The notes under the pieces are model-generated. The model searched no databases, was not told where the DNA came from, and saw only the letters and a list, made by a program, of their open reading frames with translations. Shown piece after piece: positions 60,128-64,000 of a stretch of 64,000 nt of DNA; within the stretch, counting starts at the first letter, position 1, and each line of letters starts with the position of its first letter. The translations under genes were made by a program, and so were the position numbers. This DNA is from Escherichia coli (GTDB lineage Bacteria > Pseudomonadota > Gammaproteobacteria > Enterobacterales > Enterobacteriaceae), in assembly GCF_016026235.1 (NCBI RefSeq), contig NZ_CP065613.1, one strand, 5' to 3'.

Positions 60128-60160
60128 AAAGAAACCTCCGCATTGCGGAGGTTTCGCCTT
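60128..60160. terminator. bidirectional terminator between convergent rmf and fabA
   Basis: aaacctccg-cattg-cggaggttt hairpin with T/A runs on both sides. Confidence 0.75.
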
Positions 60161-60182: not shown

Positions 60183-60701
60183 TCAGAAGGCAGACGTATC
60201 CTGGAACAGACCGACTTTCAGGTCGCTGGCGGTATAGATCAGACGACCATCAACCAGCACTTCGCCATCTGCCAGACCCATAATCAGACGACGATTAACA
60301 ATGCGTTTAAAGTGAATACGGTAGGTCACTTTTTTCGCTGTCGGCAGTACCTGACCAGTGAATTTCACTTCGCCAACGCCCAGCGCGCGGCCTTTACCTT
60401 CGCCGCCCAGCCAGCCGAGGTAGAACCCTACCAGCTGCCACATTGCGTCCAGGCCCAGGCATCCCGGCATAACCGGATCGCCAATAAAGTGGCATCCGAA
60501 GAACCACAGATCCGGATTGATATCCAGTTCTGCTTCAACATACCCTTTGTCGAAGTTACCACCCGTTTCGGTCATTTTGACCACACGGTCCATCATCAGC
60601 ATGTTCGGTGCTGGCAATTGCGGGCCTTTAGCGCCAAACAGTTCACCGCGACCAGAGGCAAGAAGGTCTTCTTTTGTATAGGATTCGCGTTTATCTACCA
60701 T
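60183..60701 (-). CDS. fabA: 3-hydroxydecanoyl-ACP dehydratase/isomerase
   Basis: Start [43 protein letters not shown] at 60701 (ORF track over-extends upstream to 60899). Confidence 0.95.
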
Positions 60702-60739
60702 GTTCTCTGTAAGCCTTATTTTATTGAAGCACGCAGGAT

Positions 60740-60775
60740 AGCTAACACGTGTACGCTGAACAAGTCCGATCAGTT
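60740..60775 (-). promoter_or_regulatory. fabA promoter operators: FabR-type palindrome (60740-60757) and FadR-type site (60759-60775)
   Basis: Minus strand reads AACTGATCGGACTTGTT (FadR-like) followed by AGCGTACACGTGTTAGCT (perfect palindrome, FabR-like) just upstream of fabA. Confidence 0.65.
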
Positions 60776-62530
60776 CGGAATAAACCAGTTCAGCCAACGT
60801 AATGGCCATGGAAAACGGTGACGTCCTTCCTGTTGCGATGCTTGCGCGATACGTTCCTGGATGGTTTGCATCAGCGTCGTTTGGCCTTCGCCATCCCACA
60901 CCAGATTTAATAATAACGGCAGTGCGTCAGTCACATCGTCTACTGCCCAGATGGTGAATTTGCCTTCTTCTACCGCTTTCACCAGTTCACTGTGAAGACT
61001 TAAATGGCGAACGTTAGCAGTGGGGATAATGACACCTTGTTTACCCGTTAACTCACGTTGCTGGCAAATAGCAAAGAAGCCTTCGATTTTCTCATTTAAA
61101 CCACCGACCGGCTGGGCGCGACCGAACTGATCGACTGAACCTGTGATAGCGATACTCTGATTCACCGGCACATCAGCGAGGGCGCTTATCAGGGCGCAGA
61201 GTTCAGCCATCGAGGCACTATCTCCATCCACTTCACTGTATGACTGCTCAAATGTCAGCGATGCTGAGAAGGGGATCTGTTGCTCAAGCTGTAGTTCCGA
61301 CATCAGGAACGCCTGCATGATCATCATCCCTTTCGCATGGATATTGCCGCCAAGCTCCGCTTTGCGTTCGATGTCGGTGAATTCACCATCGCCAATATGC
61401 ACAACGCAGCTAATGCGAGAAGGTTCGCCAAAAGCGCGTGGATGACCCGGAAATTCAATGACCGAAAGGGCGTTAATTTGCCCGATGCGTTCGCCTTCGG
61501 TTTCAATCAGGATTTGCTCCTGAAGGATCTCATCCTGCATGCGTTCAGCGAGGAAACCTTCGCGCCATTCACGCTGCTGTAGCATTAAGTTTAGCTGCTC
61601 GCCGGAGAAGGTGTCGCCATCACACAGGGAGGCGACTTCTTTACACTGGCGGAGGATCCACTGCGGGCTAAGCGGAAGTGTTTCTTGTTCACCGGTGTAG
61701 CGTGCTGCTTCGCGGATAAGTATCGGCCAGGCATCCGCTCCCGGTGCAGGTAAGTGATTATGTCTGGCGGTAAATGTCACCCAGCGACACCACTGGCTTA
61801 CTGACTCCGCATCGACAATCTGGAGAGTATCTTCAAATTCGCTATAAATAGCCTGCTCTGAAAGCTCTGGCTCCATCTCCTGGAAATCAGCCAATGATTC
61901 GCGTTCGCCTACCAGAATGACTTTCAGCTTCAATGGCATCGAAGGCACAGAGACGGGGAGAGGGCGCGACTCATCAAACGCAACCCAGTCAAAACGCTCG
62001 CGGTTAACGATATTTTTCAGCCGCATCCACAGCAGAGGTTGCGCCAGTAGTGTACGCAAAGAGATGATGAGAATACCGCCATTTGCCTGATGCACCAGAC
62101 CAGGCTGCAGGGTAATGTCGCCATTAAACTGGCGCAGGCAGCCAAAGAGTTGCTCCGCTTCTACCCAGTCGGCAGCGACAACTTGCGTTAAAGTCGCAAA
62201 ATTATCATCTGCACTCACTGCGTTACGTAAGCGGATGGTGTGGCCGGAAACCTCATAGTGACCGCCCACCAGTTGGCCTGCATCACTTTGTAGCGCACGT
62301 GCCGCATCGGCAATAAGATTCAGATACTCAGACTCTTCCGGGGCCTTCGCCAGCATAAAAGAGGAGGATGCTCGCGTATGCAGCAACTGCTCCAGCGCAA
62401 ATTGCAGTCGCGGTTGAGTATCACTGAATAAAGGATCGTTTTCGTCAATCAAATGTGGCTGAGCAAATATTTCCTGATAGCTATCGGTATCAGGAACCAG
62501 GTCACGCCATGCAAGTTTCGTAATGGTCAA
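60770..62530 (-). CDS. ycbZ: Lon-like protease homologue
   Basis: 586-aa ORF with Lon protease C-terminal domain features. Confidence 0.85.
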
Positions 62531-63200: not shown

Positions 63201-63230
63201 AAAAAAAACCCCGCAGCTGCGGGGTTTTTT
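63201..63230. terminator. bidirectional rho-independent terminator between matP and ompA
   Basis: A8-ccccgcagctgcgggg-T6 perfect palindrome. Confidence 0.85.
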
Positions 63231-63243
63231 ACCAGACGAGAAC

Positions 63244-64000
63244 TTAAGCCTGCGGCTGAGTTACAACGTCTTTGATACCTTTAACTTCGATCTCAACGCG
63301 ACGATCCGGAGCCAGGCAGTCGATCAGTGCAGCACGCTGTTTCACGTTGTCACAGGTGTTGCCAGTAACCGGGTTGGATTCGCCCATACCACGTGCGGAG
63401 ATCTTGTCTGCCGGGATACCTTTGGAGATCAGGTAATCAACAACAGACTGAGCACGGCGCTCGGACAGACCTTGGTTGTAAGCGTCAGAACCGATGCGGT
63501 CGGTGTAACCCAGAACAACTACGGAACCGTCTTTCGGATCCAGGTTGCTCAGCTGGCTGTACAGCTGATCCAGAGCAGCCTGACCTTCCGGTTTCAGGGT
63601 TGCTTTGTTGAAGTTGAACAGAACGTCAGACTTCAGAGTGAAGTGCTTGGTCTGTACTTCCGGTGCCGGAGCTGGAGCCGGAGCAACTACTGGAGCTGCT
63701 TCGCCCTGACCGAAACGGTAGGAAACACCCAAGCTCAGCATGCCGTTGTCCGGACGAGTGCCGATGGTGTGTGCGTCACCGATGTTGTTGGTCCACTGGT
63801 ATTCCAGACGGGTAGCGATTTCAGGAGTGATCGCGTACTCAACACCGCCAGCGAAGACCGGAGAAACGCCGGTGTCGTGGTCTTTAGTGGATACGCCACC
63901 AGGTACGTTAGACTTGGTGTCTGCACGCCATACCATACCACCCAGACGAGTGTAAACGTCCAGATCGTCAGTGATTGGGTAACCCAGTTTAGCGGTCAGC
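63244..64000 (-). CDS. ompA: outer membrane protein A, 3' part (start lies beyond window end)
   Basis: C-terminal OmpA domain ending ...[19 protein letters not shown]; frame continues past window edge (reverse-strand frame open to 64000). Confidence 0.92.

Follow-up and report, generated by a model that had tools for sequence, protein, structure and literature searches.

The balance between unsaturated and saturated fatty acids is determined by fabA and fabB, both of which are under well-characterised dual control by FadR and FabR. Activation of the Escherichia coli fabA promoter by FadR was reportedly described by Henry and Cronan, and repression by FabR at the same promoter is said to have been reported by McCue, Zhang, Rock, Feng and Cronan. 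The closest relatives of the fabA FadR site include the operators of fadBA, fadL and fadD, which share with it a 17-bp box having C3, T4, G5, T7 and G10 as invariant positions; these fad boxes carry G at position 6 (CTGGTC) and are repressed by FadR, whereas the fabA box lies at –40 and FadR activates fabA. In the published promoter FadR has been placed in the –40 region, with FabR lying over the –10 (PMC3462791), mutation of fadR lowers fabA–lacZ expression by a factor of 2 to 2.5 (PMC4259882), and two fabA start sites are used at neutral pH, S1 which is activated by FadR and S2 which is repressed by FabR (PMC7083825; we note that the borders of the footprints, and where S1 and S2 lie, are known here at second hand). 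The gene lies in a ycbZ–fabA operon (PMC4161252), and published work places a secondary promoter before fabA within this operon. As in other operon-internal promoters, the regulator site starts within the final codons of the co-transcribed gene upstream; unlike in these, the overlap at fabA is just 6 nt, and a CpxR site and a further start site (S3) lie deeper in ycbZ.

The locus that we analysed is the same as the published E. coli fabA promoter, from which it differs in nothing of substance, and the fabA promoter with its adjacent FadR and FabR sites is real, conserved and already known. We are highly confident in assigning the site to this known composite promoter, acting as a secondary internal promoter of the ycbZ–fabA unit. 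What we add is a small descriptive cross-species tally, in which the FadR box doubles as the ycbZ stop codon in many Enterobacterales, the stop is TAA where the box has decayed, and the overlap is dispensable elsewhere, and the locus provides a small, clean case of an internal promoter adjoining a coding sequence at almost no cost to either.

The window, by which we mean the whole 64,000-nt stretch of DNA analysed, is chromosomal E. coli DNA: the 1 kb surrounding the site matches many strains at 100% identity and was found in 5425 of the 5426 complete genomes of the species, and the RefSeq annotation around the site lists ycbZ, fabA, rmf, pqiC and pqiB. On the minus strand, ycbZ (60770–62530) encodes a Lon-like protease / AAA ATPase of 586 aa (Pfam AAA_32 and Lon_C, with the Lon_C match stopping at residue 539 of 586) and ends in a TGA stop codon at 60772–60770, and fabA (60183–60701, also on the minus strand; 172 aa, Pfam FabA, E = 4.8e-53) starts with an ATG at 60701–60699. 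A two-way intrinsic terminator hairpin at 60131–60155, with an 11-pair stem and T runs on both strands, sits between the converging fabA and rmf genes and closes the ycbZ–fabA transcription unit. Sub-threshold Rfam leader matches near these positions are weak and represent the hairpin itself. A terminator scan of the window called no terminator-like site between ycbZ and fabA, and since the two genes are co-transcribed, polymerases must cross the FadR box. The one E. coli genome among the 5426 which has no match to the ycbZ–fabA junction, and four matching places found on plasmid records, are likely to be assembly or labelling oddities.

The FadR box is the 17-bp sequence AACTGATCGGACTTGTT at 60759–60775 on the minus strand (–74 to –58 from the fabA ATG), and the FabR box is the 18-bp sequence AGCGTACACGTGTTAGCT at 60740–60757 on the same strand (–56 to –39). 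Each occurs once in the window and is still unique when up to three mismatches are allowed. The original prediction had placed both motifs on the minus strand within 75 bp upstream of fabA, with the second extending over the ycbZ stop, and these positions are correct, as the strings lie at 60757–60740 and 60775–60759, within 74 nt of the start codon, and the 17-mer covers the TGA. It had also held that the sites overlap the 3' end of ycbZ, and this is true of the FadR box, by 6 nt (positions 1–3 are the last ycbZ codon AAC, encoding Asn586, and positions 4–6 the TGA stop), but not of the FabR box, which is wholly intergenic and 12 nt from the stop codon.

The FadR box at fabA has C3, T4, G5, T7 and G10, and thus all five of the positions which are invariant among seven E. 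coli FadR boxes (these were drawn from the probes in PMC4259882 and the alignment was made here). Position 6 is A, as in fabB, rather than the G of the fad boxes. In published gel shifts, wild-type FadR bound a fabA probe (PMC4259882) that matches window positions 60784–60729 exactly and spans both boxes. This probe, together with the –40 and –10 layout reported earlier, supports the attribution of the two motifs to FadR and FabR, and we conclude that AACTGATCGGACTTGTT is the FadR site and AGCGTACACGTGTTAGCT the FabR site of the fabA promoter. Both had been called operators, and while the sites are real the word is a loose one for the FadR site, as FadR activates fabA.

The description of the FabR box as a perfect 18-bp palindrome proved to be wrong. 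It is self-complementary at 14 of 18 positions (7/9 pairs) and is therefore an imperfect palindrome, in which the perfect parts are the central ACACGTGT (60745–60752) and the outer AGC/GCT. Symmetry of this degree is no rarer than chance in the window, where 114 18-mers have 7/9 pairs compared with 98.6 ± 8.8 in first-order Markov simulations, and eleven other 18-mers reach 8 or 9 of 9 pairs. The non-random part of the 18-mer is its sequence identity and conservation, not its symmetry. The core motif ACAnnTGTnnnnT (from PMC4804515) is found inside the FabR box at 60752–60740; this core matches the window eight times and is weak evidence when taken alone. ChIP-qPCR has detected FabR at Salmonella fabA, with ligand-dependent enhanced binding weaker at fabA than at fabB (PMC4804515), and deletion of fabR in Klebsiella left fabA mRNA unchanged (PMC11481535). 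Given the lack of effect in Klebsiella and the weaker binding of FabR at fabA than at fabB, the repressor arm provided by FabR may be weak at fabA. Perfect symmetry over 18 nt is found just once in the window, in ACCCCGCAGCTGCGGGGT at 63208–63225, a palindrome just downstream of the ompA coding sequence (minus strand, ending near 63244) which probably belongs to the ompA terminator hairpin.

Our own reading of the sequence places a putative –35-like hexamer, TTGTTC (3/6 matches to TTGACA), at 60758–60763 on the minus strand, where it shares 5 nt with the 3' end of the FadR box, and a putative –10-like hexamer, TATCCT (4/6 matches), at 60735–60740 on the minus strand, 17 nt after the –35. With the hexamers read in this way, the FabR box would occupy all 17 nt of the spacer and one further base, the first of the –10, which fits the published position of FabR over this element. 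A consensus promoter scan calls no strong promoter in the fabA upstream region because the hexamers match at just three and four of six positions, and this result fits a weak activator-dependent promoter and is not proof of absence. By homology with fabB, the FadR-dependent start of fabA would lie at approximately 60729 on the minus strand (about –28 from the ATG, ± 2 nt). The centre of the FadR box would then be at about –38 to –40, and hence near –40, in agreement with PMC3462791.

At this promoter FadR binds its 17-bp box, which overlaps the putative weak –35 TTGTTC and has its centre some 40 bp before the putative start, and activates transcription; in the presence of long-chain acyl-CoA FadR is released and fabA expression falls. 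FabR binds the adjacent 18-bp imperfect palindrome, which would fill the 17-nt spacer and touch the –10 TATCCT, and in the mechanism which we propose it would repress by blocking RNA polymerase, an effect that is enhanced when FabR carries unsaturated acyl thioesters. The ycbZ gene leads into the promoter without a terminator, and its reading frame is closed by the TGA in the CTGATC half-site of the FadR box, the first stop in frame.

The fabB promoter in an E. coli genome aligns with that of fabA over the whole module, as CTGATCGGACTTGTTC-GCGTACA-GTGT--GCTAT. Common to both are the 1-nt spacer between the boxes, the –35 TTGTTC and a –10 starting GCTAT, and their FadR boxes share the non-consensus A6 and CTGATC. 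The published start of fabB transcription, at –37 (PMC7083825), follows the aligned fabB hexamer TATTGT by 6 nt. The two modules differ in their surroundings, as that of fabB is purely intergenic with mnmC divergent upstream, whereas that of fabA overlaps the end of ycbZ. They also differ in their FabR boxes, as the arms of the fabB box, AGCGTACA/TGTACGC, pair better than those of fabA, which would fit the report that the ligand-dependent enhancement of FabR binding is greater at fabB than at fabA (PMC4804515). Among the seven E. coli FadR boxes, only those of fabA and fabB have the A at position 6 which permits TGA; with a fad-type G6 the triplet would be TGG, which is unable to serve as the ycbZ stop. 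Since no gene ends in the fabB box, A6 is characteristic of the activator-type box rather than an adaptation to ycbZ.

We extended the comparison to other species by a FabA scan using one genome per species, which gave 80 loci, with a ycbZ homologue directly upstream in 78 (referred to here as syntenic loci). Majority-base fractions were compared in the Enterobacteriaceae set of 26 loci (25 distinct sequences), and were 1.00 for the FadR slot and 0.99 for the spacer plus the FabR box, compared with 0.66 for ycbZ third codon positions and 0.78 for the next 45 nt downstream. The FadR box is identical in 24 of the 26 loci with one mismatch in each of the remaining two, and is present at three mismatches or fewer in 55 of the 78 syntenic loci. 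The block ...GCTATCCTGCGT is conserved in the Enterobacteriaceae, with conservation running on through ATCCTGCGT, the putative –10, and FabR-like boxes upstream of fabA reach out to Vibrio and the Pasteurellaceae. Conservation of the palindrome across the Enterobacteriaceae, to which the original prediction had looked for confirmation, is borne out, with both boxes essentially invariant in the 26 loci. Within E. coli, identity over a 102-nt region is 99% or higher in all but one of 5426 genomes, and over the 1-kb region it is just 95–99% in 1315 of the remaining 5425.

It should be noted that the Pectobacteriaceae loci (L029, L031, L032, L034 and L048, from Brenneria, Pectobacterium and Dickeya) have a degenerate FadR slot, GACGCAACAGACTTGCT, and retain the FabR box with near-perfect arms, AGCGTACAGCTGTACGCT. 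The sequence of this slot suggests that FadR activation of fabA may have been lost in these bacteria. In these loci ycbZ ends 17 nt before the FadR slot, with the tail ...FPWFFR.

We found no remark in the accessible literature on the presence of the ycbZ stop codon inside the FadR box. When the ycbZ stops were tallied by scanning for the first in-frame stop, this was TGA at box positions 4–6 in 45 of the 78 syntenic loci, which include all of the sampled Enterobacteriaceae, Budvicia, Hafnia, Edwardsiella, Serratia and Yersinia, as well as Rahnella, Rouxiella, some Pantoea and Vibrio penaeicida. In two Haemophilus loci the ycbZ TGA lies, judging from the offsets, inside a sequence that resembles the box but has five mismatches and a 0-nt spacer. 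Box positions 1–2 differ by family (AA, GG or AG), giving Asn, Gly or Ser as the last residue, and in the last ycbZ codon only the third base, C, is fixed. In the Morganellaceae (Proteus, Providencia, Photorhabdus and Morganella) the box is good and the ycbZ stop lies 8–20 nt upstream of it, and in two Vibrio species a ycbZ TAG adjoins the box and is not inside it. Six Erwiniaceae loci (L039, L041, L054, L056, L058 and L066, from Pantoea stewartii, Pantoea WMus005, Erwinia psidii, Tatumella and two Rosenbergiella) have the stop at the E. coli slot but as TAA, and here the FadR box has decayed, with at least three mismatches outside the triplet. Both the TGA and the box are retained in other Pantoea (L044 and L062), and no locus among the 78 combines a TGA stop at the slot with a decayed box.

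The FadR box therefore constrains the identity of the stop codon, while box function and ycbZ termination are still separable because the Morganellaceae, the Erwiniaceae and fabB have one without the other. The original prediction had regarded the embedding of the site in ycbZ as constraining both, and this is fair to the extent that the third-base C and the choice of TGA are fixed, but the overlap involves one sense codon and a stop, and the two functions can be parted. We regard the overlap as incidental compaction with minimal mutual constraint and not as a coupling device.

The principal alternative is that the overlap links ycbZ expression to fabA activation, either because FadR sitting on the stop codon blocks read-through polymerase, or because terminating ribosomes or transcription displace FadR. 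Such coupling would draw on the co-transcription of the two genes with no terminator between them, which takes polymerases across the box, on the persistence of the stop within the box across 45 of the 78 syntenic loci, which range from Escherichia to Yersinia and Budvicia and include one Vibrio, and on the use of TGA wherever the box is intact at the slot (44 loci) with TAA in the six loci where it has decayed. However, the TGA/TAA pattern is expected from constraint on the box alone and represents few independent events, all of them in the Erwiniaceae, and the box is intact in the Morganellaceae with the stop 8–20 nt away, stands beside rather than around the stop in two Vibrio species, and belongs at fabB to the same module without any upstream reading frame. 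Taken together, we consider coupling to be improbable. The stronger proposal, that the stop has been retained in the box since before the split between the Enterobacterales and Vibrio with stop events mechanically linked to FadR occupancy, is if anything slightly less probable again; if true, fabA output would depend on ycbZ expression.

Incidental overlap of a protein-binding promoter also has to be set against two readings which would take the regulatory role from the motifs. The inverted symmetry of the 18-mer and its position just after the ycbZ stop might suggest a hairpin in RNA or DNA (for instance one that forms or stabilises the 3' end of ycbZ mRNA, or a weak terminator) rather than a protein site, but there is no terminator-like site called and no Rfam match at the site, the variation between species retains the ACA..TGT protein-contact pattern and not base pairing, and the same box is found at fabB where no gene ends; we therefore give this reading very little credence. 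A folded RNA structure over 60790–60702 was rejected, as its energy of –13.8 kcal/mol compares with a shuffled mean of –16.7 (z = +0.88). Chance resemblance, with the motifs having no regulatory role, could appeal to the fact that 7/9-pair palindromes are as common in the window as expected, but this would leave 36 consecutive near-invariant columns beside variable coding and untranslated DNA, a module duplicated at fabB, and the published gel-shift binding of FadR and FadR dependence of fabA–lacZ. The conservation of the sites and the binding reported in the literature already refute this reading, and its probability is practically nil.

Regulatory DNA for fabA reaches far deeper into ycbZ than the 6 nt of the FadR box, since both a CpxR footprint and a further start site are well inside the gene. 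The DNase I footprint of CpxR for fabA (–287 to –255) corresponds by the numbering in PMC7083825 to 60956–60988 on the minus strand, within the ycbZ coding sequence, where the sequence of the published region is GAACTGGTGAAAGCGGTAGAAGAAGGCAAATTC, and by the same numbering the acid-induced start S3 (–203) is at 60904 on the minus strand, also within ycbZ. No 7-codon window in the last 130 codons of ycbZ has a synonymous-site conservation of 0.85 or more (mean 0.61), and no extra synonymous-site conservation was found over the CpxR footprint and S3 region in 21 Enterobacteriaceae loci. At the other end of the upstream region, we note that CTTACAGAG is common to the 5' untranslated regions of fabA (60702–60712, minus strand) and fabB (L082:782-793), in each case just before the start codon; it could be a ribosome-binding or regulatory element used by both genes, or could be left over from a common origin.
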